A stretch of 47,838 nt of DNA from Limisphaerales bacterium (lineage in GTDB: Bacteria; Verrucomicrobiota; Verrucomicrobiia; Limisphaerales; SIBE01), in the NCBI GenBank assembly GCA_044225505.1, contig JBGAIN010000045.1, positions 1-47,838 on the forward strand. The letters are read 5' to 3'. Position numbers and translations under genes: made by a program. Below, piece by piece: positions 925-17,983 of this stretch. The notes below the pieces were generated by a model, which was not told the DNA's origin, did no database searches, and saw only the letters and a program-made list of their open reading frames with translations. Each line of letters begins with the position of its first letter. Position 1 is the stretch's first letter.

Positions 925-2535
925 TTAGAGAGACCTGAGACGGAAGAACACGCCGCGAAGGGTACTGTCGATCGGCACAGGCGCAGGAGGCGCCCAGATC
1001 GTGTTGGTGGAAACAGGAGTCCAGTGGACCCAATCGCTTGTGGCCTCGATGACATAAGTTGCTTGCGAATCGCCGGTAATGCGCAAGTTGAGCTCGCGGC
1101 CAACGAGATCCGACGTCAGGCGAGCGGGGGCGTTCGCCCTTCGGTAAGTGGTGGCAGCACCATTCTGACGCCACACCATACTCGTCACCGATCCGGCGGT
1201 ATTGGTCTGGAACGTGCCGGTCGCTTGGACGAGCGGATACGAAAACGCGCGTGATGACGTGGCGTAGAGTGTAAAGGCAATTCCGCCGTCTCCAGAGTAG
1301 GCGCCCGTCAGGTGATTGTGGCGCAGACCAATGTCGAAGAAATCGTTGGAGTCGCGTTCGTAGTGGCCCACATAACTTCGAAGCGTTGCTAACGGCACGT
1401 CCGGCTGGGGAGGGTCCGAGTCCAGGGCCAACGACGAGTTGAGAAGGTGCAAGCCGATGACATCCGTCTTCTCGATATACGAATTTGCCAGGACGATGAC
1501 CCCGGTTTTCTGGCTGGGCCGGAATCCGATAAAACCGGAATAGCCCGCGGTGTTGCCGCCGTGCCAGATCACTTCGTCGCCGTCTTTCGCGGTTATCAGC
1601 CACCCCAAGCCCATCGATGCTGTGGCCGACGAGAAGTGCAAACGATGCGCATTGGTCATGGACCTGTAAAGTGAACTGGGGATCAACCCAAGGTTCGCGG
1701 AGACGTACGCGGCCATATCCCGCGTCGTCGATCGTAAAGCGCCCGCGCCTTCAAGAACGTCAAAGTCCCAATTCTCGACCGGCACCACGCCGTTGAAGCC
1801 TGGGAGCAAGCGCGAGCGTTGTTCGGCCGAAAGTGCGATCGCCGTGTCTGCCATCCCCAAAACCTGAGTCACTCTGCGGCGGACCATCGACGCATAGTCC
1901 ACTCCTTCCGCCAAGGTAAGGACATGCCCCAACAAACCGACTCCCAGATTGGAATACTCCCACTCCGCTCCCGGATCTCGCGGCAAGGTATAGTTGGAAA
2001 GAAACGGGTACAGCTCGGCCACCGTATAGTCGACGTAGGGGTTGAGCCAATTGGCTGGTTGAAAGTTGTCTGGCATCCGAGGCAATCCGGACGAATGTGT
2101 TGCCAGATGCTGCAGAGTGATGGATTTGCCATGGCGACTCGGCACGACCACGGAGTCCGGGAGATACTGTGCCACAGGGTCAGACAGAGCCATGTTCCCT
2201 GCCATCACTTGTTCGGACAGCATGGTGCAGGTGAAGGTTTTCGTGATGGAGCCAATCTCGAAGATCGAGTCTTCAGTCGGAGCGACCCCAGAATCCCAAG
2301 TCGTCTGGCCGAAGCTGAAAAAAGCCGATCCGTTCGTGGTGACTTGCGCCACCATATATCCCGGACAGTAGCCGTTGGTCAGGCGGGATAGAATTCGGTT
2401 CTGAACATCGAATGGCAACGCGGCTGCATGGACGTTGTACCGTGACGTTCCCAGGGCCAGGACCACTGCGGCGAAACCCAGAACGTCCGCAATAAACCCT
2501 CGCCGCCCGGACCGCCGTCTCAAAAGCATCATCAT
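925..2535 (-). CDS. Serine hydrolase, beta-lactamase class C/AmpH-like family, secreted, with C-terminal 'FFRL' domain
   Basis: FEIGSITK (SxxK), LATHSSGL, WEYSNLG (YxN) and WHGGNTAG motifs; N-terminal signal peptide; ends ...GVFFRLRSL. Confidence 0.9.
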   Translation of the reverse strand: MMMLLRRRSGRRGFIADVLGFAAVVLALGTSRYNVHAAALPFDVQNRILSRLTNGYCPGYMVAQVTTNGSAFFSFGQTTWDSGVAPTEDSIFEIGSITKTFTCTMLSEQVMAGNMALSDPVAQYLPDSVVVPSRHGKSITLQHLATHSSGLPRMPDNFQPANWLNPYVDYTVAELYPFLSNYTLPRDPGAEWEYSNLGVGLLGHVLTLAEGVDYASMVRRRVTQVLGMADTAIALSAEQRSRLLPGFNGVVPVENWDFDVLEGAGALRSTTRDMAAYVSANLGLIPSSLYRSMTNAHRLHFSSATASMGLGWLITAKDGDEVIWHGGNTAGYSGFIGFRPSQKTGVIVLANSYIEKTDVIGLHLLNSSLALDSDPPQPDVPLATLRSYVGHYERDSNDFFDIGLRHNHLTGAYSGDGGIAFTLYATSSRAFSYPLVQATGTFQTNTAGSVTSMVWRQNGAATTYRRANAPARLTSDLVGRELNLRITGDSQATYVIEATSDWVHWTPVSTNTIWAPPAPVPIDSTLRGVFFRLRSL

Positions 2536-2805
2536 AAATGCGCCTCTCGCAGAACCCGTGAAATTCTTAACGCCTAGCGCGCGCGTGACTCCTGACGTAC
2601 GACTCTGGACTCTGTTTTTTCATAATGGCGCAACCGAGGAAAGGCCAATGTTCCGTCAGGAATCGATTGTCGAGAGGACACAAGTCCTTATGATCGTGAA
2701 CGCTCCTTTTGCCGGCAACGACAGATTTCATGAGTCCTGGCTCACCTGTTTCCAGCGGCGTTCGGCCAGAGACAAATTGGTCGCGCTCTCCGGAAGTGAT
2801 CCGTA

Positions 2806-2834
2806 TTGACTAAAGCGTCTTCGTAGAGGAGAGT
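2806..2834 (+). promoter_or_regulatory. Putative sigma70 promoter giving a leaderless transcript of the CxxC leader ORF
   Basis: TTGACT-N17-GAGAGT with the GTG start 7 nt after the -10; no obvious RBS. Confidence 0.35.
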
Positions 2835-2841
2835 CGACGCA

Positions 2842-3216
2842 GTGTTCGGCCGATGGACCAGCTTCCCGGTAGTTGTCATGCTCTGCCTCGTCTTGGGGCT
2901 GCAGTGGACCGTTTTGCGTACCGTCGCGTGGGTGAACATGTTCGTCACCTTCGTTCAGACGGACTCGGTTTCTGAAGCCTTGACGAAGACCTTTGACGGG
3001 AAGCATCCATGCTCCCTCTGCAAATTTGTTAAAAGCGCTGAACAGTCCGAGAAGAAACAGGAGTCCATCAAGGTTGAGGCGAAGCTGGACTTGATATTGA
3101 CTCTAGAGAGCTGCCGACTCACGCCCCCGCCCGACTATACGTTGCTTCCTCTCCTGGACCATACGTCTTCCGGAAGAACCGAGTCACCGCCGGTTCCCCC
3201 TCCTCGGGCAGTCTGA
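2842..3216 (+). CDS. Small membrane CxxC protein with Pro-rich tail (DUF2946/CutF/CruR-like), copy 1
   Basis: N-terminal hydrophobic helices, TFDGKHPCSLC motif, C-terminus RTESPPVPPPRAV; paralog at 14552. Confidence 0.75.
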   Translation: MFGRWTSFPVVVMLCLVLGLQWTVLRTVAWVNMFVTFVQTDSVSEALTKTFDGKHPCSLCKFVKSAEQSEKKQESIKVEAKLDLILTLESCRLTPPPDYTLLPLLDHTSSGRTESPPVPPPRAV

Positions 3217-3567
3217 TCTATTCTTCTGTCGGCTCGGGCCATCGCGGCCTGAGTGCTTCGTCCGCTAAAGATTCCGTCTTTAGCACATCCGTCAATTTCT
3301 GATCGGAGCGACTTAACGCTATACGATCGCCTTTAGCCGTGAGTGCAAATTTGCGTGGGTTCACTCGGATTGAACCCTGGGTCCACATTCTGACGATCGC
3401 GGTCCGGGCTGGCAACGCTCCGAGACCAGAGGATGGTTTCGGGGCGACCTCGTTGCCCGGTGCATTGGGTGGGGACAACAGAATCTGAACCCCGTCGCCG
3501 ACGCCGAGCCCGCGACAGACGGACAGCACAGTGTTCGACTGGACCGCAGTGATGGTTGTCTCTTGGT

Positions 3568-4278
3568 ATGAAACCAAGCTCATCAAATCCCGAAAGCCAA
3601 AGTCAGGCTGAAGCCAGCGCTTTGCCGTTGCCTGATGAGGCTCGCCTGACCCGGCGCGAGTGGGTCGGCACGATGGGTTTTGGCCTCGCCATCGTCGGTG
3701 TGACCGGAGCGATTGCCTTCTTGACTGGCCAACGCCGCAAGACCTCGCTCGATCCCGCCGAGTTGGATCGGCCGCGCCGATTGATTCCATTCGCACTCAC
3801 GGAACGCAGTGGCCGCACGGTGACGGAAGCGGATCTGGCCGGAAAGATCGTGGTTGTCGACTTCGTGTTCACCGGCTGTTCTCTGAGCTGCCGCGCGGTG
3901 AACGACTCGATGGAGGAAATTCAGAGACTCACCGCGGGTGCGAAGGACGTGCAGCTGATTTCATTGACGGTCGATCCTCGCACCGACACGCCAGCGGTGC
4001 TGACTGCATTTGCGAACAGTTACCATGCGGACTCCAACCGTTGGCTGTTTCTGACGGGGGAAAAGCGTCAGCTTTACGGCCTTATTGAAACCAGCTTTAT
4101 TCCGAAGGCGCCCGAGCTAGAACACCTGATTCCCGGAGGCTTCGTCCGCACCGACTGCATCATGCTGGTGGACCCACTCGGCAATATTCACGCCTCTTTC
4201 GATGGGCTCGAACGCGACGCCGCGAGAACGGTGGTTTCAGCAATTGAAAACCTTCGTGCAAAGATTCAAGCCAAATGA
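3568..4278 (+). CDS. SCO1/SenC family protein (atypical: conserved His apparently absent)
   Basis: FALTERSGRTVTEADLAGKIVVVDFVFTGCSLSC (CxxxC), SLTVDPRTDTP and WLFLTG; N-terminal TM segment after LTRREW. Confidence 0.9.
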   Translation: MKPSSSNPESQSQAEASALPLPDEARLTRREWVGTMGFGLAIVGVTGAIAFLTGQRRKTSLDPAELDRPRRLIPFALTERSGRTVTEADLAGKIVVVDFVFTGCSLSCRAVNDSMEEIQRLTAGAKDVQLISLTVDPRTDTPAVLTAFANSYHADSNRWLFLTGEKRQLYGLIETSFIPKAPELEHLIPGGFVRTDCIMLVDPLGNIHASFDGLERDAARTVVSAIENLRAKIQAK

Positions 4279-5156
4279 ACTTATTCGTGATCTGCTTCAT
4301 CCTCGTCTCCGTAAGTGTTGCGGCGCGTTGCGGCGAGTCGACCTCAGCGACGAACCAGGCTGGCACGACACGCGGGATAATCCGCGAGATCGCTTCCGAT
4401 CATCGGACCGCCGTCATTCGTCATGAGGCGATTCCTGGATACATGCCAGCCATGACCATGGAGTTCAATCTGAAGAATACAAATGAGTTGAGCGGCATAG
4501 CCGTTGGAGACACGGTTACCTTCCGACTCACCGCAACCAAGGAAACCCATTGGATCGACAACATCCGCAAGGTTGCTTCAGCCACGAACAGTCCAACTCT
4601 AACGCGACGAGGAATCAAATCGTCCCCCGTTGCTGAACTTAAACCGGGCGACTTGCTGCCAGACTCTGACCTGCTCGCGGAGACCGGCAAAGTCATCCGA
4701 TTCTCGGACTTTCGCGGCAAGGCCGTGGCCTTCACGTTCATCTTTACCCGCTGTCCGCTGCCGGACTATTGCCCGCGCATGGGCAACCATTTTGCCAAAA
4801 CCCGCGAGTTGCTCCTCGCCAACACCAACGCGCCGGCGAATTGGCAGCTCCTCTCCATTTCATTCGACCCGGAGTTTGACACGCCTGCTGTCCTGTCGAA
4901 CTACGCCAAACTCTATCGTAAGGAGATGGCGGATCGTTGGCTCTTCACCGTGGCTTCACGGGGTGTACTCGAGCAACTGGCGCCTCGCCTTGATCTGATG
5001 GTTCGCCGTGAGCCCGGGGGAAGCATCTCGCATAATCTACGAACGGTAGTGCTCGATCCAATGGGCCGAATTCACCGGCAGTTCGACGGAAATCAATGGA
5101 CCCCGAAAGAACTGGCTGACGCGGTCGTTGAGGCTACAGGGAGAACCAACCGGTAA
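4275..5156 (+). CDS. CusF-like copper-binding domain fused to SCO domain
   Basis: Signal peptide; HEAIPGYMPAMTMEF (CusF-type His/Met site); FIFTRCPLPDYCP, SISFDPEFDTP and ISHNLRTVVLD; ATGA overlap with the upstream gene. Confidence 0.9.
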   Translation: MNLFVICFILVSVSVAARCGESTSATNQAGTTRGIIREIASDHRTAVIRHEAIPGYMPAMTMEFNLKNTNELSGIAVGDTVTFRLTATKETHWIDNIRKVASATNSPTLTRRGIKSSPVAELKPGDLLPDSDLLAETGKVIRFSDFRGKAVAFTFIFTRCPLPDYCPRMGNHFAKTRELLLANTNAPANWQLLSISFDPEFDTPAVLSNYAKLYRKEMADRWLFTVASRGVLEQLAPRLDLMVRREPGGSISHNLRTVVLDPMGRIHRQFDGNQWTPKELADAVVEATGRTNR

Positions 5157-7870
5157 TGATCGCATTTTACAGGTCCACCCAGCCGACGTTGGATGCGGGT
5201 CAACGGCAGATTGGAAGGTCTACTTATGGCAGGCGTCGACCTACGGTAGTGGCGTTCCCGTTGCGCCGCTCGTCTTGGGCCAGGTTCGTCTGGCTGGCGT
5301 TTGTCGCCGCCGGCCTGAGCTTCGCTTTTCAAGCGTTTGCTCAAACCAATTTTGCGCACTTCGAGGGACGGCAAGCCCATCCAATAGGACTGACGCCGGA
5401 TGGCACGCGGCTTCTGGCGGTCAACACACCGGATGCACGGCTCTCCGTTTTCCAGGCGCCACGGGGAAGCGACGCAGCGCCGGTGTTGATCTCGGAAATC
5501 CCGGTTGGGCTCGAACCGGTGTCGTTGCGCGCCCGCACCGATGATGAAGTTTGGATCGTCAATGAGCTCTCCGACAGCGTATCGGTGGTGTCTCTGAGCC
5601 GGCGGGTGGCATTCGACACCCTGCACTGCCCGGACGAGCCGGCCGATGTGATTTTCGCGCAGGGAAAGGCGTTCGTTAGCTGTGCTCGAAACAATTTGCT
5701 GCGCGTCTTCGATGCGGCGACAAGGGCGGAGTTAGGCACCATCGAGCTCGATGGCCTCAATCCTCGCTCGCTCGCCGTCGACACAGAAGGAGCTCGGGTG
5801 TATGCGGCCTTTCAGCTTTCGGGCAATCGCACGACGGTTCTTCCGGCGAGTGTGGCACCGCCACCGCCCGCACCGACCAATACCAATCTGCCCGCGCCGC
5901 CACAAACCGCCGTCATTGTCAAAGCGACTGATTCCAGGGTGCGCTTTACGGTGCTCGATCATGACGTGGCCGAGATCTCCGTCACTGAGCAGCGTGTTCT
6001 TCGCTATTTCACGGACGTGGGGACTAGCCTGTTCGATCTCGCCATCAGGCCAGGGGCGAACGAAGTCTGGGCGGTCAATACGGACGCGCGCAATGTCGTC
6101 CGGTTTGAGCCCGAATTGCGGGGACATTTCGTCGACAACCAGGTCACACGTATCACGCTTTCTCAGGGAGTGGTAAGCGCCTTTGACCTGAATCCTGGCC
6201 TCGACTACCGGCAACTTCCCAACCCTGCTGCTGCCGCCTCAGCACTCGCTCAGCCGACCGGACTCGTCTTTACGAAAGACGGGGTCCACGCGTGGCTGGC
6301 CTCGTTCGCTTCCGATCGCATCGCCAAGCTGGATGCGTTGAATGGGAAGGTTTTAGCTAGAGTGGAGGTTCGCATTCCGCCGGACTCTCACGTGGTGCGA
6401 GGACCCCGCGGTCTGGTGTTGGACGAAGGAACCCAACGCCTCTACGTCCTTAACAAGCTGGCTAACTCGATCAGCGTCGTGGATACCGTGAACCTCCAGA
6501 TTATTGCTGAAGTTCCGGCGGGTAGTTACGACCCGACACCGCAGGCGGTGGCGAAGGGGCGTGCCTTCCTTTTCGATGCGCGACTTTCGGGCAACGGGAC
6601 CGGATCCTGCGCCAGTTGCCACATTGATGCGGATCGCGACGGTTTGGCCTGGGATCTGGGCGATCCCGACGGCGACATGTCCGAGGTTAAGGGCGCAAAT
6701 TTTGCCTCTCATAACACTCAGCCGCAGGTGCGCCTGATGCACCCAATGAAGGGGCCGATGATGACGCAGACATTGCGCGGGTTGGCCCAAAACCAGTTGC
6801 TGCATTGGCGAGGTGACCGTGCCACGTTGGCCGACTTTAATCCGACGTTTCGCGACCTAATGGGTGGCATGCTCCTGCCCGACGACGACATGGCCGCGCT
6901 CAAACGCTATCTCGATTCGCTCCGACATCACCCAAACCCTCATCGGACTTTGGAGAACACCGCCCCCTCCAAGTTCAATGGCGGAAATTCGGCCCGCGGG
7001 AGTGCACTGTTTAACATCCACGAAAATCACTGTGCCGTGTGTCACGTGCTGCCCAGGGGGTCGGATAATAATGTTGATGACGCGCGGAACATTGCGGGCA
7101 GTCAGTTTATCAAGACGGCGCCGCTGCAGACCGTCTATCAGCGCGCCGTGCTGGACACAAGGGCTGGAGCCACAAATCTCAGCGGGTTTGGCCTGCTGCA
7201 CGACGGAACGGGAGGGTTTCGTTCATTACCCACGGTTCACTTCTATGAGCTGGATAACCTTGGCGGAGCAGATTTCGCGGACGTAAGTGCGTTCGTCATG
7301 ACCTTCGATACAGGTACGGTCCCGGCAGTCGGTTATCAACGCACCCTCAATGCCACGTCCGCGCGGGATCCTGTTGCCGAGGCGGAGTTGACTGTCGTGG
7401 AGAAACAAGCGCAAGCGGGCGCTTGCGACCTGATTGTGCATGGAAACGCGGGAAATCGGACCCGGCAATATCTATTCGAGAGAGAATCCTGGCAGTATCG
7501 CCCCGCCAGCACCAACGAACCTTCTCTCACCAGGGGTCAGTTGTTAGAACTCCTTGGGCCGGACGACGTGCTCACCTTTCTTGGCACTCTGCCGGGACGC
7601 GGGATTCAAGCGAGCATTGACCGCAACGAGAATGGCGTCCTTGATGGCGATGAGGAGGTCCCGAGGCTCGAAATAGCACGGGCAGGCCATGAACTCCGTG
7701 TGGTGTCGACCGCAACGGACCGCGGTTGGGTGCTGGAACAGGCTCCAAGCGCGGTTGGGCCTTGGGAGATGGCATCAATTCTGGCACTTCCCTTGGGCAC
7801 TGATCGGCTTGTCCTGGACGCATCCTCAATTCCGTCGAGTTTCTACCTCCGCCTGCGTCGGACTTGGTGA
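5156..7870 (+). CDS. Secreted YVTN/YncE beta-propeller fused to a di-heme cytochrome c peroxidase/MauG-like domain
   Basis: Propeller repeats (IPVGLEPVS, LYVLNKLANSISVVD); two heme motifs CASCH and CAVCH; TQTLRGL..LHWRGDR, KTAPLQ and LHDG resemble CcP/MauG blocks; ends FYLRLRRTW. Confidence 0.85.
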   Translation: MIAFYRSTQPTLDAGQRQIGRSTYGRRRPTVVAFPLRRSSWARFVWLAFVAAGLSFAFQAFAQTNFAHFEGRQAHPIGLTPDGTRLLAVNTPDARLSVFQAPRGSDAAPVLISEIPVGLEPVSLRARTDDEVWIVNELSDSVSVVSLSRRVAFDTLHCPDEPADVIFAQGKAFVSCARNNLLRVFDAATRAELGTIELDGLNPRSLAVDTEGARVYAAFQLSGNRTTVLPASVAPPPPAPTNTNLPAPPQTAVIVKATDSRVRFTVLDHDVAEISVTEQRVLRYFTDVGTSLFDLAIRPGANEVWAVNTDARNVVRFEPELRGHFVDNQVTRITLSQGVVSAFDLNPGLDYRQLPNPAAAASALAQPTGLVFTKDGVHAWLASFASDRIAKLDALNGKVLARVEVRIPPDSHVVRGPRGLVLDEGTQRLYVLNKLANSISVVDTVNLQIIAEVPAGSYDPTPQAVAKGRAFLFDARLSGNGTGSCASCHIDADRDGLAWDLGDPDGDMSEVKGANFASHNTQPQVRLMHPMKGPMMTQTLRGLAQNQLLHWRGDRATLADFNPTFRDLMGGMLLPDDDMAALKRYLDSLRHHPNPHRTLENTAPSKFNGGNSARGSALFNIHENHCAVCHVLPRGSDNNVDDARNIAGSQFIKTAPLQTVYQRAVLDTRAGATNLSGFGLLHDGTGGFRSLPTVHFYELDNLGGADFADVSAFVMTFDTGTVPAVGYQRTLNATSARDPVAEAELTVVEKQAQAGACDLIVHGNAGNRTRQYLFERESWQYRPASTNEPSLTRGQLLELLGPDDVLTFLGTLPGRGIQASIDRNENGVLDGDEEVPRLEIARAGHELRVVSTATDRGWVLEQAPSAVGPWEMASILALPLGTDRLVLDASSIPSSFYLRLRRTW

Positions 7871-7907
7871 CCTTTACTCCTAAACAACAAACTCCATTGA
7901 AAAGAAC

Positions 7908-10574
7908 ATGCTAAGAACACGACAACTCAAACATCATTGTCTCATCCTGGCGGCAGGAACTGCCGCGCTCGCGCAGCTCTCGCTGTGCGCACACGACGCT
8001 GAACCGATCGAGTTCAGCGAAATTGGCATTCCCTATAGCTGGGGCGTTGAACTGGATTCCCATGAATCGGTCGAGGTTGGACCCGCCCATGTCGGCGCGT
8101 GGAGTTGGGATGAAGACAGCTTTCCTGCAACCGCGCGAGGCTGGACCCATACTTCCGCGTGGGTGAAGCTGGACCTTACCGAGGGGGCGGCTTTGACGCT
8201 GACGCTTCAAAGCGCGGCGAACGTTCCCTGGCCTAGTCCCGAGGAACCGAACCGCCTGGCTGGGACAAATCTGTTTCCCTCATTCACGCTTTACCGTGGC
8301 TGGGATACAGACCCTGGAATCACCCAGGACGAAACTGGTGCGACCATCGATCAAAACCATAATTTTAACAATCGGGGCAACATCGACTGGGCCGAAGATG
8401 TAACCTATCTGGATCATCTAGAGAACGCTACCGCACATTCGGTAACGCGAACCTGGCGCCTGCCGGTGGGGCACTACACAATCAACCTGGGCGGCAACTC
8501 TCCGGTAACGCTCGCAGAAGGTCGACAAGGCTACAAGGCAACGCTTTCCGCAGCTCCACTGTCCACCGTGTTGACCAACGCCGAGCTACACTCCATCGAC
8601 TTTAGCGAGGTGGGTATCCCTTACGCCTGGGGCCTCGTGATGGATGAGCAGTCCACAGCCCAAACTCCGCCGGACCACGTTGGCGCGTGGAGTTGGGACG
8701 AGGACGGATTTCCGGAGACGGCCAAAGGCTGGACCCATACCTCGTCCTGGGTGAAGCTCCGTCTGCTTAAACCTTCGAAACTCACACTGCAACTGGCCAG
8801 CCTGGCCAACGTGCCATGGCCAAGTCCTGAGGAACCCAATCGTGTCGCGGGAACGAACCTGTTCCCCTCGTTCTCGCTTTACGCCGGTTGGGATACGGAC
8901 AAGGGGCTGATGACCGATACCAACGGCGTGAGCATTGATCAGAATCACAATTTCAACAACCGCGGCGCGATTGACTGGGCTGAAGACGTTCTCTATCTGG
9001 ACCACCTCGACAATTCCAGTGCGCATTCAGCCACGCGTACTTGGACTTTGCCTGCGGGCGACTACACGATCAATCTCGGGGGCAACTCGCCCGCGGTCGT
9101 CGCGGAAGGCCGCCAGGGTTATCAAGCCACCTTCACCACCACACCGCTTTCTGCTCCGGATGCGGCGATCTTGCCCGTCCTTTTCTCCGAGACTGGAGTT
9201 CCCTACGCCTGGAATCTGGTCATGAACAGTACCGCCACCGTCGAAACTCCACCGGCACATGTCGGCGCGTGGAGTTGGGATGAGGACTCGTTTCCGGAGA
9301 CGGCCAAGGGCTGGACCCACACGTCGGCCTGGGTGAAGCTCGACTTGCTGCAACCGGCACGGTTTACCTTGACCCTGGCCAACCGCGCGGACGTGCCTTG
9401 GCCGAGCAACGAGGATCCCAACCGGCTGGCGGGCACGAATCTTTTTCCATCGTTCACGCTTTATCGTGGCTGGGACACGGACGCCGGTTTGACGACCGAC
9501 ACCAACGGCGTGACCATTGATCAGAATCACAACTTCAACAACCGCGGCGCGATTGACTGGGCCGAAGACGTGGCCTACGTCGATCACCTGGATAACTCGA
9601 GCGCCCATGCGGTCGCGCGGACCTGGACCCTGGCCGCGGGGCGTTACACAATCAACCTGGGCGGCAACTCGCCCGCCACCCTTGCTGAAGGCCGCCAGGG
9701 CTACAAAGCGACCTTTACCACGACGCCCGTCACCACCCTCGCGAGCGGCTCCGCCACGATCGACTGGGATAAGGCAGCTTGGGACACGCTCGCGTCCGGC
9801 TTTGGCACACTGCCGGTCCTAACTCTGGCCGCGTTCTTCAATCAGGCCGACGCGAACGCGCTTGCTAGCGATCAATTGGTGACGAACGCCCAGGCTAATC
9901 CTTCCTATACTGGCCAGGTTTACGCGATGAATGGTCCGGTCGTCACCAATCTCGCCGGCCGCACCGCTCAACCCAGCACGTTCGCCTACGAGCCGGGAAA
10001 CTTGACTCACCATGCCGGCAGCATCGGACTTGGCGGTGCGGCTCGGTTTGCGGTTCTCGGTGGAGCCGGTGGAAATCTGCTCTACGGGGACTACACCTTA
10101 CAGTATGATAGCGCCCGGCTCGTATTCGGTGGTTCGGGTTGGTACCTTAAGGGCAATATTCCTCCAGCCGGGGCGGTGTTCGATCTCCTGAATGTCCAAA
10201 TCAAGGAGGCGACGAATTCGTTCACACTGGCTGGCGATCTGGGTGTGTCCTTTGAAGTCGCGAACCTTCTCTACGCCACAGCCAACGATGCGCTTAGGGA
10301 CGTTGGTAACTTCACCTTCACCGGGCAAGTGCGCACTCTCGAGGCGCCTGTCATCAGCCAGGTCGCTTTGGCGGGGGCCAACTTGATCGTACGCGGCTCG
10401 AACGGACTCCCCGGAGCCAGCTATGCGCTTTTGTCCTCGGGCAGCATCGGGTTGCCGAGGTCCGCCTGGACGACGAGCGCCGTCGGAGTGTTCGACGCGG
10501 AAGGCAAATGCTCGATTTCGCTTCCGATCTCGGCGGCCGCGACCGCACGGTTCTTTAATCTGCAGCAACCCTGA
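7908..10574 (+). CDS. Secreted protein with three tandem MopE/CorA-like copper-binding domains, an unknown beta-rich domain and a C-terminal 'FFxL' domain
   Basis: Signal peptide ending LCA|HD; three ~195-aa repeats each carrying HVGAWSWDED..GWTHTS.W...LFPSF.LY.GWDTD...NHNFNNRG.IDWAED; the WTH motif plus a distal His matches the MopE/CorA site as I recall it. Confidence 0.75.
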   Translation: MLRTRQLKHHCLILAAGTAALAQLSLCAHDAEPIEFSEIGIPYSWGVELDSHESVEVGPAHVGAWSWDEDSFPATARGWTHTSAWVKLDLTEGAALTLTLQSAANVPWPSPEEPNRLAGTNLFPSFTLYRGWDTDPGITQDETGATIDQNHNFNNRGNIDWAEDVTYLDHLENATAHSVTRTWRLPVGHYTINLGGNSPVTLAEGRQGYKATLSAAPLSTVLTNAELHSIDFSEVGIPYAWGLVMDEQSTAQTPPDHVGAWSWDEDGFPETAKGWTHTSSWVKLRLLKPSKLTLQLASLANVPWPSPEEPNRVAGTNLFPSFSLYAGWDTDKGLMTDTNGVSIDQNHNFNNRGAIDWAEDVLYLDHLDNSSAHSATRTWTLPAGDYTINLGGNSPAVVAEGRQGYQATFTTTPLSAPDAAILPVLFSETGVPYAWNLVMNSTATVETPPAHVGAWSWDEDSFPETAKGWTHTSAWVKLDLLQPARFTLTLANRADVPWPSNEDPNRLAGTNLFPSFTLYRGWDTDAGLTTDTNGVTIDQNHNFNNRGAIDWAEDVAYVDHLDNSSAHAVARTWTLAAGRYTINLGGNSPATLAEGRQGYKATFTTTPVTTLASGSATIDWDKAAWDTLASGFGTLPVLTLAAFFNQADANALASDQLVTNAQANPSYTGQVYAMNGPVVTNLAGRTAQPSTFAYEPGNLTHHAGSIGLGGAARFAVLGGAGGNLLYGDYTLQYDSARLVFGGSGWYLKGNIPPAGAVFDLLNVQIKEATNSFTLAGDLGVSFEVANLLYATANDALRDVGNFTFTGQVRTLEAPVISQVALAGANLIVRGSNGLPGASYALLSSGSIGLPRSAWTTSAVGVFDAEGKCSISLPISAAATARFFNLQQP
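8007..9730 (+). repeat. Three intragenic tandem repeats of ~585 bp
   Basis: TGG of the GWTH motif at 8142, 8730 and 9312 (spacing 588 and 582 bp); long near-identical blocks such as GGCGCGTGGAGTTGGGA. Confidence 0.95.
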
Positions 10575-10580
10575 TTCAGG

Positions 10581-11384
10581 GTGTGGCGTTTGATCTCAAC
10601 GTCAATCAGGACTGCCGGCGCGCGCTCGCGCGTCGGCAGTCCGCTTCATGCTGGCAGGGCATTTACGTTGACTGAACTCCTGGTCGTGATCGCGGTGATC
10701 AGTGTCCTGGCCGCGCTCTTACTGCCAGCGCTCTCTCAAGCCAAACGCCGGGCCAAACGGACCGTCTGCCTGAATAACCTCAAGCAGTTCGTCCTGGCGG
10801 ATACGATTTATGCCAACGATCACGGTCAACTTCCTCCCGTCAATGACTTCGTTCCAACCAGCATCACTGTCGACCGCTTGTCAATGATGGCCGCGACGCT
10901 TGGCTTGGCGGTTCCAGCTGGTTCCGCTTCCACGTGGCCGAAACGCGTCCAACAGCCGCAGTGGATCAATTGTCCCATGGCCGCGGAATCCGGCTACGCG
11001 GAGGGGATCACACTTGGCGGAGGACTGTATACGGGGTACTCGTATGTGGGCGGTCTTGAAAAATCCCGCATGCTGGAGCTGAAGTTCGCCACGGTGCTTC
11101 ATCCCGATCATGCCGCCGACAGCAAAAACACCCGCCGCGGCGTGCTTTGGGCGGACGTGCTCGACGAGTTCCTTTTAACGGACCCCAGGCGGTTCGAATT
11201 TTTTCATACTCGCAAGCTGGTCAAGTATCCGGACTTTCGATACCACGCCGAAGACTTAGAGGGCATTCACCGGGCATGGTCGGATGGTTCGGTAGAATGG
11301 ACTTCGGCAAAGCGCCTGAATCTCTCCGAGGCCGCTAGCTCGGACCTCCAGATTAAGCATCTATTGGGAAACTTCTATTACTGA
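10581..11384 (+). CDS. Prepilin-type N-terminal cleavage/methylation protein (DUF1559-like, with H-X9-DG-like C-terminal motif)
   Basis: [39 protein letters not shown]-terminal [13 protein letters not shown]. Confidence 0.9.
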
Positions 11385-13740: not shown

Positions 13741-14463
13741 ATGCTCAATCGTCGACAAGCCATTCAAAGGACCGCGCTCCTCAGCGCAGCCATCGCTCTT
13801 CGATCACCGTTCCCTGGGAACGTCACGCAAGCTGCAGAGCCTGTAGCTGCCTTCTCGCTCCCGCCGCTCGGATACGCCTTCGATGCGCTCGAGCCTCACA
13901 TTGATGCGCAGACGATGCAAATTCACCACGACAAACATCATGCTGCTTACGTGGCAAATCTAAACAAGGCCATCGCACAGGCCCCGGCCTTGTCGGGCCT
14001 GTCTGTTGAGGCCTTGCTTAAGGATCTAAAGGCTGTCCCCGAGGCTGTGCGTACGGCCGTCCGAAACCATGGAGGGGGACATGCGAACCACTCGCTCTTC
14101 TGGCAACAGTTGGAAAAGAACAACGGACGCGGGCCTTCCGCGGAATTGGCCGATGCCCTGGAAAATAAGTTTGGCACTTTCCAAAAATTCAAGGAAGCGT
14201 TTACCGAAGCGGCCACGAAGCAGTTTGGGAGCGGCTGGGCCTGGCTTACCATCGACGCCAAGAAGGAACTTCTTATCGAGTCGACGGCCAATCAAGACTC
14301 TCCACTTTCCACAGGACGAACCCCTTTGCTGGGCATCGATGTCTGGGAACACGCCTATTATCTTAAGTATCAGAACCGGCGCGCAGACTATATCGCTGCA
14401 TTTTACAATGTGATCAATTGGGACAAAGTAGCAGAGCGTTACCGCGCAGCGGTGCGAGCCTGA
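13741..14463 (+). CDS. sodA: Superoxide dismutase [Mn] with Tat signal peptide
   Basis: [44 protein letters not shown] and [16 protein letters not shown]-terminus MLNRRQAIQ. Confidence 0.95.
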
Positions 14464-14516: not shown

Positions 14517-14544
14517 TTGACGTTGTGGGGGTTTCCGGTAGCAT
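14517..14544 (+). promoter_or_regulatory. Putative sigma70 promoter giving a leaderless transcript of CxxC leader ORF copy 2
   Basis: TTGACG-N16-TAGCAT with an ATG at 14552, 7 nt downstream. Confidence 0.4.
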
Positions 14545-14551
14545 TATGGAC

Positions 14552-14932
14552 ATGCGTTCCGTAGTTCGATTGACCACCGTCACCGTGCTGGTCCTCGCGC
14601 TGGGCCTGCATTGGGTGGTGCTCCAAACGATTGCGTGGACGGGCATGATAATCAACTACTCACGTGACGCTTCGTTTTCTCAGGCGGTGAGCAGGACATT
14701 CGACGGCCAGCATCCCTGTTCAATGTGCACGGTGATCAAGAAAGCTCGGGCTGAGCAAAAGCAGCACGAGCAGGAAGAGCCGGTCAAGCCCGGGACAAAG
14801 CTGGACTTGGCTCTCGTTTGGGAGTGTCCTGCATCTGATTTCTTCTGCAAACATGAGCGGATGGCCGTCCAAGAGGACGATGCTCCCAGCCGTTCCTACG
14901 CTCCTCCCAAGCCGCGTCCCCGGCCGGCTTGA
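14552..14932 (+). CDS. Small membrane CxxC protein with Pro-rich tail (DUF2946/CutF/CruR-like), copy 2
   Basis: LGLHWVVLQTIAW..TFDGQHPCSMC..KLDL..RSYAPPKPRPRPA; clear paralog of 2842-3216. The start could also be 14546. Confidence 0.75.
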   Translation: MRSVVRLTTVTVLVLALGLHWVVLQTIAWTGMIINYSRDASFSQAVSRTFDGQHPCSMCTVIKKARAEQKQHEQEEPVKPGTKLDLALVWECPASDFFCKHERMAVQEDDAPSRSYAPPKPRPRPA

Positions 14933-15178: not shown

Positions 15179-16462
15179 TTGACGAATAACAATGTGAATA
15201 CCGGTGATATTACCTTGCCGTGGTTGTTGCGACTGCGCTGGGCAGCGGTCACAGGGCAGACCGCGACGATTGCCTTTTGCACGGACGTATTGCGGATCCG
15301 GTTGCCGCTGGGGCCGCTGCTGGCCGTGCTTCTGGTGGCTTTAATCAGCCAGCTGACTCTATGGTTCGCAGGGCAGCGATTGGCGAAACCCCGGCACGCG
15401 ATCATTGGAGGCGCCCTCGCTATGGATACTCTATTGCTCACAGCATTGCTCTATTTCACCGGCGGTCCGCATAATCCATTCAGCGCCTTTTACCTGATTC
15501 ATATCGCGATGGCCGCTTCGCTGTTGGGAGCGGGTTGGACCTGGGGATTGCTCTGCCTGGCCATGACGTGTTTCGGCGGACTGTTCTGGGCCAACGTCCC
15601 ACTGGCGTTTCCAACCAGTGGCGAACCGATTTGCGGTTTGATGCCGATACAACTTCATTTGACCGGAATGTTTGTTGCCCTGGTCCTGACCGGCGTATGC
15701 CTAGCTTGGTTTGTGGCGCGGTTAAACAGCCAACTCCGCGCTCAGTCGGCGGCGCGCCATGCCGCGGAGATGAAATCCGAGCGCGAAGCGCGCTTCGCTT
15801 CGTTGGCCACGCTGGCAGCCGGATTCGCCCACGAAATCAATTCGCCACTCGCTACCATCGCGGTGGCAGCCCGAGAATTGGAATTGGACGCAGAACTAAC
15901 AACATCGTCAGCCGCGCTGGCGAGCGAGGCCCGGCTTATCCGCGTAGAAGTCGAGCGATGTCGAGAACTTCTGGGTCGGTTGCGCGCCTCGGCCAGTGAT
16001 GGCACGCATGACCCTCCGGTAGACTGGCATGCGACAGAATTGGCGCAGGTATTGCAAGCGTCGCTGCCCTTGTCGCACTCAGCCCGGTTGGTATTCGGAC
16101 TTCCGGGTCCTGCCGTCTGTTTTCGCGCCCCACGGTTCGCGTTGCTGCAAGCACTGACCAATCTCATTGATAACGCTATGGACGCCGCACCGCCCGGGTC
16201 GGCCATCCGCCTGGAGATTGTGCGAGAGGACGACACAGTCAGTTTCACAGTGAGTGATCGAGGGCCGGGCTTGCCGCAATCGGTGCTGGCGCGGTTGGGT
16301 GAACCGTTTGTCACGACTAAAGAGCCGGGGCGAGGCACGGGCCTCGGTTTGTTCTTGGTCCGCCGTTTTGCTGAACAGATGGGGGGGAGCTTTTGCATCG
16401 AATCACCTCAAGAGGGTGGCACGAGGGCAAAGCTGGAACTTCCTCAAGAGGCCACTGCATGA
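15179..16462 (+). CDS. regB: RegB/PrrB/ActS-family redox-sensing histidine kinase
   Basis: LRWAAVTGQ, TGGPHNPF (GGxxNPF quinone site), AHEINSPL H-box, ERCRELL redox Cys, and N/G1/G2 boxes. Exact start uncertain (15179 or 15194). Confidence 0.85.
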   Translation: MTNNNVNTGDITLPWLLRLRWAAVTGQTATIAFCTDVLRIRLPLGPLLAVLLVALISQLTLWFAGQRLAKPRHAIIGGALAMDTLLLTALLYFTGGPHNPFSAFYLIHIAMAASLLGAGWTWGLLCLAMTCFGGLFWANVPLAFPTSGEPICGLMPIQLHLTGMFVALVLTGVCLAWFVARLNSQLRAQSAARHAAEMKSEREARFASLATLAAGFAHEINSPLATIAVAARELELDAELTTSSAALASEARLIRVEVERCRELLGRLRASASDGTHDPPVDWHATELAQVLQASLPLSHSARLVFGLPGPAVCFRAPRFALLQALTNLIDNAMDAAPPGSAIRLEIVREDDTVSFTVSDRGPGLPQSVLARLGEPFVTTKEPGRGTGLGLFLVRRFAEQMGGSFCIESPQEGGTRAKLELPQEATA

Positions 16463-16998
16463 AAATGACACGTGTTTTGTTGGTGGAGGATGACGATGCT
16501 TTTAGAGAACGGCTTGCGACTGCGCTGATTCGTCGCCATCTCACGGTGTGGCAGGCTGAGAATCCCGCCGAAGCCAAAGCCGTCGCGCTCAGCGAGCCTA
16601 TCGATGGGGCGGTGATTGATCTGCGAATGCCGGGCGGGTCGGGGTTGGATGTGGTGCGCGAAGTTCATGAGCTGCAACCGGCGGCGCGGCTGATTGTTTT
16701 GACGGGTTATGGCAGTATCGCGACTGCACTGGAAGCCGTTCGCCTCGGCGCGGCCGACTACGTAACCAAGCCCGCGGATGCCGATCAAATCCTCGCGGCA
16801 TTGCGCGGACGGCGAGCACCGCACTTCGATCCCGGGGAATTATCCAAAACGATTCCCAGTCTGGATCGTGTGGAGTGGGAGTACATTCAACGGGTCCTGG
16901 CTGAAACTGGCGGCAACATATCGCGCTCTGCCCGTCTGCTCGGTCTGGACCGCCGCTCTTTGCAGCGCAAGCTGAGCAAGTATCCGCCGCAGCGCTGA
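16459..16998 (+). CDS. regA: RegA/PrrA/ActR-family response regulator
   Basis: REC domain (VEDD, IDLRMPGGSG, LTGYGSIATA) and SLDRVEWEYIQRVL..GGNISRSARLLGLDRRSLQRKL HTH; ATGA overlap with regB. Confidence 0.92.
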   Translation: MKMTRVLLVEDDDAFRERLATALIRRHLTVWQAENPAEAKAVALSEPIDGAVIDLRMPGGSGLDVVREVHELQPAARLIVLTGYGSIATALEAVRLGAADYVTKPADADQILAALRGRRAPHFDPGELSKTIPSLDRVEWEYIQRVLAETGGNISRSARLLGLDRRSLQRKLSKYPPQR

Positions 16999-17062: not shown

Positions 17063-17983
17063 ATGAAACTGACATCCATACTCTGTTTGTTCGTCGTTCT
17101 GATCACTTCCATTGGCCGGGCTCAAACTCCCATCAAAGACGTGCTCGCCCAAATCGACCCAGCCACGGCCAAGGCCAAGGACACCACTACGGAATTCACC
17201 GTCAGCGGCGTCGTGGCTGCTCGAGTCGTTCTGCCCAGCGAACAGTGCGTCGCATTCGTCCACACTCCAACAGAGCCTGCCTTGGCCGTTTTGGCCGACC
17301 CAAAGGATGGCGCACACCTGCTGCCCCGAAACGTGGTCAAACTCGTAGGCAAGCTGGGCGACGGTCCCTTCGGCGCGGCACTCATTGTCAAACCCGGGAC
17401 CGTTTCAATAACTGAAAGCAACAAGCCGTTCGCCTCGGTCTCTGTCTCAGGATTGTTATTCAAGGACGCAACCGCAATGAACGGTCGCTATGTGCAGCTA
17501 ACCAACGTTACTTTCGCCCCAGGAAGATTTGATGCGTCGGGCAAAGCGATCGTCAAGACTCCGGACGGTTCCGACGTCACTCTCCTGCTTAGCAAGGGCG
17601 TTGCGAACCGGGATGTTCCTGCCGATGCCACGGATGTTTTCGGCGTCGTTATCAAATCCGGTTCGGAATGGCAATTAGCGGCCGCTCGATTTCTGCCCAT
17701 AACACGCAAAGCCAGTCAGGAACTGGCAACGCTGAAGACCTGCCTCAGTTGCCACAATCCCGATACCCGTCAGATTGGTCCAGCCTACCGTGATGTAGCC
17801 TCCAAGTACCGCAATGACCCGGAAGCGATCAAGAAAATGACCGCCCAGATGGAGACGGGCGGCACTGGCAAGTGGGGTACCAACGTCATGGTCTCCCTCA
17901 AAGCCCTCGTTGCCCCGGCGGAGATGAACCGATTGGCCCATTGGATCTACAGTTACCGTTGGGACGCTGTCCTTGCAGAATGA
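17063..17983 (+). CDS. Exported protein: N-terminal OB-fold-like domains plus C-terminal cytochrome c551/c552-type monoheme domain
   Basis: Signal peptide; CLSCH..IGPAYRDVASKY..GKWGTNVM class I cytochrome c. The OB-fold assignment is an inference. Confidence 0.75.
   Translation: MKLTSILCLFVVLITSIGRAQTPIKDVLAQIDPATAKAKDTTTEFTVSGVVAARVVLPSEQCVAFVHTPTEPALAVLADPKDGAHLLPRNVVKLVGKLGDGPFGAALIVKPGTVSITESNKPFASVSVSGLLFKDATAMNGRYVQLTNVTFAPGRFDASGKAIVKTPDGSDVTLLLSKGVANRDVPADATDVFGVVIKSGSEWQLAAARFLPITRKASQELATLKTCLSCHNPDTRQIGPAYRDVASKYRNDPEAIKKMTAQMETGGTGKWGTNVMVSLKALVAPAEMNRLAHWIYSYRWDAVLAE

Follow-up and report, generated by a model that had tools for sequence, protein, structure and literature searches.

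A 124-amino-acid (aa) open reading frame (ORF) at positions 2842 to 3216 of a Limisphaerales contig is a strong candidate member of a new family of leader peptides of the CruR/CutF type, one without sequence relationship to CruR or CutF. The stretch of DNA that was analyzed, here called the window, is the 47,838-nucleotide (nt) contig JBGAIN010000045.1 of assembly GCA_044225505.1 (Verrucomicrobiota). Our preferred reading, to which we give a probability of roughly 55%, is that the ORF belongs to a large, unnamed and mainly verrucomicrobial family of leader peptides that would act in cis, as judged by their CruR/CutF-like build, and that are not detectably related to either peptide. A preliminary description of the window had reported the 124-aa ORF, its HPCSLC motif, a terminal SPPVPPPRAV and inverted repeats behind the ORF, all of which are present where it had placed them. 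Stalling and copper sensing are functions that we infer for the family by analogy with CruR and CutF. To our knowledge, copper-sensing arrest peptides have been demonstrated only in Proteobacteria, as CruR and CutF, and are tied to DUF2946.

Homology searches indicated that the ORF has many relatives. A word-indexed search returned 169 homologues at E ≤ 0.01, nearly all of them 115 to 135 aa long and none with a recorded Pfam domain. Against 1.84 billion representatives, a profile of 35 homologues matched 2,915 representative clusters when E was allowed up to 1e-3 and 2,061 when it was limited to 1e-10. With 169 homologues and 2,915 clusters, we conclude that the ORF is far beyond chance. The same profile matched 69 of 301 evenly sampled Verrucomicrobiota genomes, and the genome studied here carries six copies, two of which lie inside the window. 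Both record titles and the ESM Atlas place the family mainly in Verrucomicrobiota, and the 30 nearest ESM Atlas clusters contained only unnamed Verrucomicrobiota. When the 124-aa ORF was compared with Pfam (to E ≤ 0.1) and NCBIfam, zero families were returned.

Conservation along the family proteins was uneven. In an alignment of 35 sequences (A1), the invariant positions were W30, M33, T50-F-D-G-K-H-P-C57, C60, P116, P119, P120 and P121. The family set comprised 127 ORFs at 121 loci, from which the 103 ORFs that are unique, full length and in possession of both H.C..C and the tail pattern were counted; 20 ORFs with variant tails (such as PLLQPPR, PPTRPPR, PPTPPPL or APPVPVPI) and one ORF lacking the His were listed and left uncounted. 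PPKPRPR is another variant of the tail motif. Among the 103 ORFs, the mean frequency of the majority residue was 0.91 in the Cys motif, 0.79 in the Pro tail, 0.58 in the hydrophobic anchor and 0.33 in the linker at residues 73 to 114, and a SEKK stretch directly after the Cys motif was a conserved exception within the spacer. The second Cys and the Arg of PPPR were 62 residues apart in 84 of the 103 ORFs and 61 to 63 residues apart in 96 of them, and the tail after the Arg was 2 aa long in 41 and 4 aa long in 55. Because the 62-residue distance is kept while the linker frequency is 0.33, we conclude that the length of the linker is constrained and its sequence is free. The ORF in the window ends in SPPVPPPRAV. 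TFDGKHPCSLC is a candidate Cu(I)- or redox-sensing site, and PPVPPPR is a candidate ribosome-arrest motif by analogy with the PPP of CutF.

We note that some family members depart from this pattern in length or apparent host. The representatives P0183, P0194 and P0254 are 199 to 234 aa long, match the family at residues 2 to 122 and continue for ~75 to 110 residues beyond PPxPPPR; read-through, fusion or frameshifting could account for them. Moreover, family loci (L010, L017, L020, L023, L027, L032, L040 and others) were found on contigs of metagenome-assembled genomes labeled Terriglobales, Acidoferrum or Binatia, and further such contigs are labeled Haliangiales, Proteobacteria and even Bifidobacterium, which may reflect either mis-binning or spread beyond Verrucomicrobiota.

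Relatedness to DUF2946, the family of CruR, was not supported by profile searches. The DUF2946 profile, PF11162, matched 0 of 35 family members even at E ≤ 10, and a search of the whole genome with it gave only sub-threshold noise (best E = 0.065, with stop codons inside the matches) and no PF11162 gene. PF11162 was found in 8 of the 301 sampled Verrucomicrobiota genomes, 5 of them over the cut-off. An hhalign comparison of A1 with an alignment of eight verrucomicrobial PF11162 proteins (A2) returned a probability of 0.7% over 9 columns around PCSLC/CPLC. The nearest named groups in the ESM Atlas were DUF2946, DUF6769 and DUF6660, at 0.90 with 88 to 99 shared features, which is a lead and not evidence. 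The preliminary description had proposed that FDGxHPCxxC proteins are the verrucomicrobial counterpart of CruR and CutF; a conserved family with the CruR/CutF layout does exist, but kinship with DUF2946 is not supported by the PF11162 and hhalign results, and the profile comparison that the description had suggested as a check came out negative. We conclude that the family is an analogue of CruR and CutF and not a member of DUF2946, because homology was tested and not found.

The N-terminal region of the ORF suggests membrane insertion. Net charge is +1.6 over the first 8 residues and about 0 past the anchor segment, and this contrast between a positive N terminus and neutral residues beyond the anchor favors an N-in, C-out orientation, which is thus an inferred one. 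An AlphaFold2 (AF2) model, used for secondary structure only, contained helices at residues 7 to 18, 20 to 40, 43 to 51 and 58 to 90 and coil at residues 91 to 124, with low overall confidence (mean predicted local distance difference test [pLDDT] score of 65.5 and predicted template modeling score of 0.29) and a pLDDT of about 70 to 75 for the helices within residues 7 to 40. A Shine-Dalgarno (SD)-like stretch, GAGGAGAG, is located at 2826 to 2833, with 8 nt between it and the GTG start. A scan of 2400 to 3800 found a single weak promoter-like site on the plus strand upstream of the ORF, at 2667 to 2694, by consensus match only. Six contigs from RNA libraries (4 metatranscriptome runs in 3 studies, the runs having been selected through this stretch) were at least 99% identical to the window, and all of them fell within 2856 to 3207 with no cover on 2400 to 2855 or 3208 to 5400; such contigs show only that the ORF is present in RNA libraries, and the absent cover is uninformative on termination. 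The genome encodes both elongation factor P (EF-P) and Rho.

The RNA behind family ORFs also has recurrent features. Leader sequences vary among subfamilies, but the overall plan recurs: the RNA past the family stop codon is rich in pyrimidines (fraction of 0.66, versus 0.50 at control gene ends), and behind it comes a GC-rich hairpin that starts at a median of 15.5 nt past the stop and has no U-tract behind it. A hairpin starting 10 to 25 nt past the stop was found in 77 of 121 leaders versus 34 of 539 control gene ends, and a hairpin within 45 nt of the stop in 102 of 121 leaders versus 131 of 539 controls. A two-hairpin model (R2), built from 12 leaders of the commonest type, which precede a gene for a ~316-aa protein, matched 35 loci, each match lying at the family stop codon or within ~80 nt downstream of it, and the majority starting on the stop. 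In the R2 alignment, which was fitted to the model, 94.8% of cells were paired, compared with 32 to 58% in slid controls, 16 of 19 pairs showed compensatory changes and 0 of 500 shuffles reached the observed values. The leader in the window was not matched by R2. No stem or pairing that would mask an SD sequence was found in the leader. We note that the ~105-nt R2-type leader, for example in L015, L018, L032 and L046, contains two conserved linear stretches, TTTAACCTTGAGA and CTCGCAAYTTTGAAATTTG. We know of no Rfam family that corresponds to the R2-type leader, Rfam having been searched with the window only.

Gene neighborhoods were determined with crude gene calls (longest nonoverlapping ORFs), all-against-all BLASTP clustering and a Pfam scan of cluster representatives. 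A downstream neighbor on the same strand was present for 108 of 120 family ORFs, and the gap to that +1 gene had a median of 103 nt (quartiles, 70 to 122 nt) versus a median of 34 nt for 301 same-strand control gaps from the same loci. Gaps of 80 to 140 nt accounted for 62 of the 108 family gaps and 39 of the 301 control gaps. In 72 of 127 ORFs the +1 gene encoded the ~316-aa protein (two clusters), which resembled PF13557 (Phenol_MetA_deg), OMP_b-brl and, in the PDB, the FapF barrel (E = 0.008) only weakly; on the basis of these resemblances it is a putative outer-membrane barrel, and because CopC-CopD often comes after it, it is a candidate outer-membrane copper channel. We note that the barrel consensus contains a Cys pair (ACxxC) just past the presumed signal peptide, for example in L018:6476-7453 and L015:6451-7392. 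Other +1 genes encoded prepilin-type N_methyl/DUF1559 proteins (20 ORFs), CorA-like proteins (3 ORFs), a TonB-dependent receptor (L027) and, in the window, SCO1. Farther downstream, CopC was found in 14 loci (at +2), CopD in 13 (mostly at +3) and SCO1 in 12, along with TonB receptors or HupE. A same-strand CopC, CopD, SCO1, CorA-like or TonB-receptor cluster gene occupied one of positions +1 to +5 in 23 of the 69 loci that had at least 3 kb of downstream sequence. The upstream neighbors look unrelated (YkuD, an ArgA-like gene and an aminotransferase). The preliminary description had tied the family to copper genes and would have been contradicted by random neighborhoods; with same-strand neighbors in 108 of 120 cases and copper-type cluster genes in 23 of 69 loci, the neighborhoods are not random. 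We conclude that they are envelope directed and substantially copper linked, yet heterogeneous.

Paralogs within the genome illustrate the range of genes behind the family. On contig C53, the paralog is followed by a PepSY_TM gene and a gene for an HMA-domain protein, and on contig C144 by DUF1559 and two unknown families. The second paralog in the window, at 14525 to 14932 on the plus strand, ends in ...APPKPRPRPA, is located downstream of an Fe/Mn superoxide dismutase gene (13741 to 14463) and precedes by 246 nt a histidine kinase gene (15179 to 16462), a response regulator gene (16393 to 16998) and a gene for a cytochrome c protein (17063 to 17983), a cargo that is not obviously a copper gene set. 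We also note that the prepilin-type DUF1559 genes behind family ORFs regularly precede genes of two unnamed clusters, unk287 and unk338 (for example, L088:3274-5147, L103:1094-2926 and L024:7155-7979). Two unk287 proteins gave a weak "choice-of-anchor M" match in NCBIfam, which returned nothing else of use for the unknown neighbors, and the N-terminal half of unk338 resembles, by eye only, the repeat unit of the CorA-like protein encoded in the window.

Comparison of the window with its closest relatives indicated that the DNA between the ORF and SCO1 consists of a conserved leader and decayed genes. In a search of relatives at the DNA level, the 105 nt directly past the stop codon shared 86% identity with the DNA behind the C53 paralog, and the leader at 3217 to 3338 also aligned to the C144 paralog and to two loci, L007 and L103, of a same-genus genome. 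In C144 and L007, the leader ends after 122 to 123 nt at the GTG of a prepilin-type gene, and GTG 3339 of the window aligns with the starts of those intact genes (position 6490 in L007; L088:2561 for C144). In the window, MSANLRGFTRIEPWV follows the GTG of ORF 3339 to 3488, which reads GFTRIE and stops after 49 codons; by blastx against a very small database, 3339 to 3413 shares 13 of 25 residues with the N terminus of the L007 protein. The segment that follows, 3413 to 3527, is 76% identical in DNA sequence to L103:1501-1615, inside a 324-aa ORF of L103 (1094 to 2065); by blastx, 16 of 24 residues matched in frame +2, and the residues ahead of them were read in frame +3. L103 represents an intermediate state, with GCG in place of the prepilin start codon and an undamaged unk338 gene. 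Because the original +1 genes have decayed (by gene decay or deletion), SCO1 is now the next intact gene. The spacer had been described as lacking a credible gene, which holds insofar as no intact gene precedes SCO1 but overlooks the 122-nt conserved leader and the two gene relics. The proposal that the ORF natively heads a copper operon fails at this locus, since relics of two other genes precede SCO1. We conclude that the coupling of the ORF to the SCO1 operon is, in this locus, secondary and uncertain.

The window-type leader is conserved in sequence among relatives, and its predicted structure rests on 5 to 6 sequences because model and metagenome searches added few relatives. Covariance model R1 found only three copies, all from this genome, in 151 genomes of the order, and only L007, L103 and a partial match in L109 among 30 loci; a metagenome scan for close relatives gave one close locus, which was cut at a contig end. 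Outside the window-C53 and C144-L103 pairs, leader identity was 0.55 to 0.68 versus a fourfold-site identity of 0.36 to 0.55 in 7 of 8 pairs; fourfold-site identity in the eighth, L007-L103, was 0.37. Between the window and C53, leader identity was 0.78, below the fourfold-site identity of 0.85. The folding and covariation analysis called for in the preliminary description gave a mixed answer, with three hairpins predicted in the leader (H1, H2 and H3) but compensatory change in only 2 of 29 predicted pairs among five sequences, and with a fold of 3190 to 3580 that is not distinctive (z = −1.86; 7 of 100 shuffles fold as well). Rfam returned no match for 2500 to 4000 at permissive thresholds. 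One further pairing, between the Arg-codon region CUCGGGC at 3203 to 3209 and H1, appeared in the minimum-free-energy fold and was dropped, as by eye it was unconserved in C53 and L007.

One way in which these features could operate together is as a peptide that senses metal while it is being made. The N-terminal hydrophobic segment would insert N-in, so that the chain is exported during synthesis and the invariant HPCxLC motif reaches the periplasmic side. The 62-residue spacer would act as a ruler, exposing the Cys motif as the PPxPPPR codons are decoded. Polyproline would slow peptide-bond formation, and how long the ribosome dwells there would depend on whether the Cys motif holds Cu(I), or on whether its cysteines are thiols or a disulfide. 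A ribosome dwelling 2 to 4 codons before the stop could then decide what becomes of the structured RNA leader that follows and, through transcription termination (Rho is present) or translation initiation, the expression of the next gene. Because the cargo genes are of copper acquisition and delivery types, a CruR-like polarity, with expression ON at low copper, is expected. A broader version of the proposal, whose chances we place a little short of even, is that the family is an independently evolved verrucomicrobial class of transmembrane metal-sensing arrest peptides in which a ruler-positioned HPCxLC serves as a portable switch for copper or periplasmic redox. In this version, the arrival of PPxPPPR at the peptidyl-transferase center would coincide exactly with the placement of the periplasmic HPCxLC site on the outer side of the translocon. 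The module, with ~2,900 clusters and up to 6 copies per genome, would be a duplicating one, its lineage-specific leaders of two or three hairpins placed ahead of unrelated cargos: barrel-CopCD operons, SCO1, CorA/MopE-like scavengers, TonB receptors, PepSY_TM reductases, DUF1559 arrays and a two-component system.

Several observations weigh against a cis-acting leader peptide. Function is transferred by analogy only, because no homology to DUF2946 is detectable. H1 lies ~33 nt from the Pro codons, out of reach of a ribosome stalled there, and its position tracks the stop codon rather than PPPR, with a mean of 16.0 nt for 2-aa tails and 13.8 nt for 4-aa tails where tracking of PPPR would predict a compensation of 6 nt. 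As a Rho-site signature, leaders showed no C-over-G skew beyond controls (C minus G of 0.023, versus 0.009), a comparison that is not informative, and the scan of 2400 to 3800 found no terminator-like site. Recognized copper genes were confined to only a third of the scored loci (23 of 69), many others having prepilin-type or unknown genes, and a two-component system lies downstream of one paralog; in the window itself, relics of two genes intervene between leader and SCO1. Finally, the anchor keeps polar and aromatic residues (G19, H/Q21, W22, W30 and M33) and the 11-residue motif is conserved beyond the needs of a bare CxxC, two properties that fit a folded, stable protein. One candidate for such a protein is a small membrane protein acting in trans, either a periplasmic Cu(I) chaperone anchored in the membrane or a protein that exchanges thiols and disulfides with the barrel, CopCD or SCO1; its proline-rich end would be a docking or spacer motif. 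The residues kept in the anchor (W22, W30, M33 and H or Q at position 21), the 0.91 frequency in TFDGKHPCxLC, the placement of CxxC by AF2 (low confidence) at the N terminus of the long helix 58 to 90, the synteny with copper-handling envelope proteins and the indifference of H1 to PPPR all speak for it, and it could coexist with a leader role. A docking motif, however, leaves unexplained why the 62-aa length is fixed while the spacer sequence is free, why only 2 or 4 residues separate the motif from the stop in 96 of the 103 ORFs, and why the gene is near-constantly first, with a long structured leader, before at least five unrelated kinds of +1 gene. We consider a stable trans-acting protein unlikely, and the cis-acting leader peptide is preferred.

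Two further alternatives concern the RNA and the locus rather than the peptide. The preliminary description had proposed an RNA switch controlling the copper operon, in which GCTAAAG(A) at 3264 to 3271 pairs alternately with 3277 to 3284 or with 3331 to 3337. Both pairings exist. The local one is H2, in which GCTAAAGA (3264 to 3271) and TCTTTAGC (3277 to 3284) form 8 nt of 100% complementarity around a 5-nt loop, and the distal one joins GCTAAAG at 3264 to 3270 to CTTTAGC at 3331 to 3337 over 7 nt. Moreover, the heptamer occurs three times in a stretch of 74 nt, and the distal copy, at −8 to −2 relative to the relic GTG 3339, occupies the place expected for the ribosome-binding site of the +1 gene that once stood there. 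But the second partner is conserved in none of the four aligned relatives (by eye, the aligned positions in L007, C144 and L103 do not complement the 5' arm of H2, and the region is absent from C53), and H2, kept in 4 of 5 aligned leaders, is broken in C53, the closest paralog. The start that might be masked belongs to the 49-codon relic, with the SCO1 start ~220 nt beyond, and neither Rfam nor the fold statistics of the spacer set the region apart. The window contains 6 heptamer copies on both strands versus 2.75 expected, a count that is only mildly unusual because 7 of 100 shuffles reach 6. The alternative pairing is most likely due to chance, and a switch of this kind is very improbable. 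The other alternative is that the leader has been orphaned at this locus, the SCO1-CusF-MbnH-like-CorA-like array running on its own signals after decay of the native +1 genes. It draws on the prepilin-type and unk338-type relics between leader and SCO1, on the intact unk338 gene behind a decayed prepilin start in L103, and on the position of SCO1 elsewhere, at +2 to +5 and behind another gene in all but one locus; the contigs of the 4 RNA libraries, which fall only on the ORF, agree with it as well, although absent cover elsewhere is not evidence. Set against it are the failure to find a plus-strand promoter-like site or a terminator-like site between 3217 and 3556, which is a weak test, the common strand of every gene between 2842 and 11384 together with the narrow gaps behind SCO1, and the fact that copper genes are the usual cargo of the family. 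We regard an orphaned leader as somewhat unlikely. We conclude that a cis-acting leader-peptide family accounts best for the fixed spacing, the placement near the stop codon and the structured leaders.

The features of the locus are collected in Table 1. The SCO1 gene starts at either TTG 3556 or ATG 3568, which leaves a gap of 339 or 351 nt from the ORF. We note that the adjacent genes at 5156 to 10574, encoding the MauG/MbnH-like and CorA/MopE-like proteins, resemble the MbnPH-like pairs described for DUF2946 operons in PMC9426467.

Table 1. Coordinates of the candidate leader ORF, its parts and the surrounding genes in the window
Feature	Positions	Strand	Basis
Upstream divergent gene, beta-lactamase family	925-2535	minus	ORF list and Pfam
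Divergent intergenic region 5' of the ORF	2536-2841	+	Promoter-like site and SD-like GAGGAGAG
Leader-type ORF, 124 aa, GTG start	2842-3216	+	Homologue and profile searches
N-terminal hydrophobic anchor, residues 8-38, with conserved G19, W22, W30 and M33	2863-2955	+	Alignment A1, AF2
TFDGKHPCSLC motif, residues 50-60 (HPCSLC, 55-60)	2989-3021	+	35/35 in A1
Spacer between motifs, residues 61-115, poorly conserved sequence of fixed length	3022-3186	+	Family alignment
PPVPPPR, residues 116-122, followed by Ala-Val and the stop codon (3214-3216)	3187-3207	+	Alignment A1
Conserved 122-nt leader: pyrimidine-rich linker (3217-3231), H1 (3232-3254), H2 (3264-3284), H3 (3301-3328)	3217-3338	+	DNA alignment
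Relic: 5' end of prepilin-type (N_methyl/DUF1559) gene, GTG kept	3339-3413	+	blastx
Relic: internal part of ~330-aa unk338 cluster gene, frameshifted	3413-3527	+	DNA comparison and blastx
SCO1/SenC copper chaperone gene, first intact gene downstream	3556-4278	+	PF02630, E = 6.5e-20
CusF-SCO1 fusion gene	4275-5156	+	PF11604, 1.3e-15; PF02630, 9.8e-13
Beta-propeller plus di-haem MauG/MbnH-like protein	5156-7870	+	PF10282, PF03150; TIGR04039 (MbnH family), partial
CorA/MopE-like Cu(I)-binding domain protein, 888 aa, three internal repeats	7908-10574	+	PF18252, 1.5e-9; repeats seen in the translation
Prepilin-type N_methyl/DUF1559 protein, end of array	10581-11384	+	PF07963, PF07596

If the leader-peptide reading is true, nascent-chain sensing of extracytoplasmic metal would be either much older than CruR and CutF suggest or repeatedly evolved, and a phylum in which DUF2946 is rare would gain a class of its own. 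Thousands of small genes now called hypothetical would receive an annotation, and a candidate copper-acquisition regulon, including the ~316-aa barrel and DUF1559-type genes, would be defined in soil and freshwater Verrucomicrobiota. The fixed 62-aa spacer supplies a direct geometric prediction that can be tested. In the window, the seemingly empty 340-nt gap is a conserved leader plus decayed genes and not a riboswitch-like element.

Comparison with known systems was made from the published reports on CruR and CutF (PMC9426467; PMC9973294; bioRxiv 10.1101/2025.02.05.636593), which bear out what the preliminary description had said of the two peptides. In CruR (Bp2923) of Bordetella pertussis, copper is reported to relieve arrest, which leads to Rho-dependent termination (PMC9426467). 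According to the same source, DUF2946 proteins have CXXC and RAPP 45 residues apart, a spacing that is conserved within 1 to 2 residues and functionally required; more than 95% have an export signal or an N-in transmembrane segment; and their genes stand first in operons with long intergenic distances, together with TonB receptors, PepSY_TM, Sco, PCuAC, YcnI, CopC and MbnPH-like genes. The family described here likewise consists of small first genes of same-strand arrays with a putative N-terminal export signal or N-in transmembrane segment, and it has a CxxC with L-C-type residues, H55-P-C57-x-x-C60 being invariant in A1 and H.C..C being present in 102 of 103 full ORFs. In both, the length between the Cys and Pro motifs is conserved, although the values differ (62 aa here, 45 aa in CruR), and the Pro motif lies a few residues before the stop, although its sequence differs (PPxPPPR here, RAPP at ~3 residues before the stop in CruR). 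Both have a long intergenic region (162 nt in CruR, a median of 103 nt here) and copper-uptake-type genes downstream, namely TonB receptor, PepSY_TM, Sco, CopC and MbnPH-like genes. The family differs from CruR in having no sequence or profile similarity past the 9 columns around CxLC, in the strong conservation of its anchor and 11-residue motif, in its host phylum, Verrucomicrobiota, where PF11162 itself passed its cut-off in only 5 of 301 sampled genomes, and in its commonest +1 gene, which encodes the ~316-aa putative barrel and not a TonB receptor.

CutF of Rhodobacter capsulatus is reported to combine a Sec signal with a CxxxC motif and, at its C terminus, a PPP (PMC9973294; bioRxiv 10.1101/2025.02.05.636593). 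Like the putatively exported proteins of the family described here, it is small and has a Cys motif and a PPP near its C terminus, and its stalling is reported to be countered by EF-P. The mature CutF protein is reported to be undetectable or quickly broken down. It is also reported to control the next gene in cis through an intergenic stem-loop, a layout to which that of the family may be likened, and the family passes the filters used to find CutF-like proteins (fewer than 150 aa, PP in the last 15 residues and a same-strand neighbor; PMC9973294). The two differ in that the Cys motif of CutF is CxxxC and its Sec signal peptide is cleavable, whereas the family has HPCxLC and an anchor; in that the gene under CutF control is described as encoding a detoxifying oxidase and as being ON when copper is high; and in that the CutF stem-loop is described as shielding the SD of the next gene near the stall site, whereas H1 here is ~33 nt from the Pro codons. 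Verrucomicrobiota are not mentioned in the CutF main text, or in the available parts of the PMC9973294 supplement and of the PMC9426467 tables. A full-text literature search for a connection of Verrucomicrobia with both copper and an upstream open reading frame found nothing.

SecM, MifM, VemP and the RAPP-type peptides ApdA and ApdP are force- or export-sensitive arrest peptides. The family resembles them in pairing an N-terminal export or insertion element with a C-terminal arrest motif, such that arrest would be coupled to the exported chain. It differs in that what those peptides sense is the machinery of secretion or insertion, and what they control is Sec or YidC genes; they are without a Cys motif or a link to metal genes. 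We conclude that, among these systems, it is the architecture of CruR and CutF that the family reproduces point by point.

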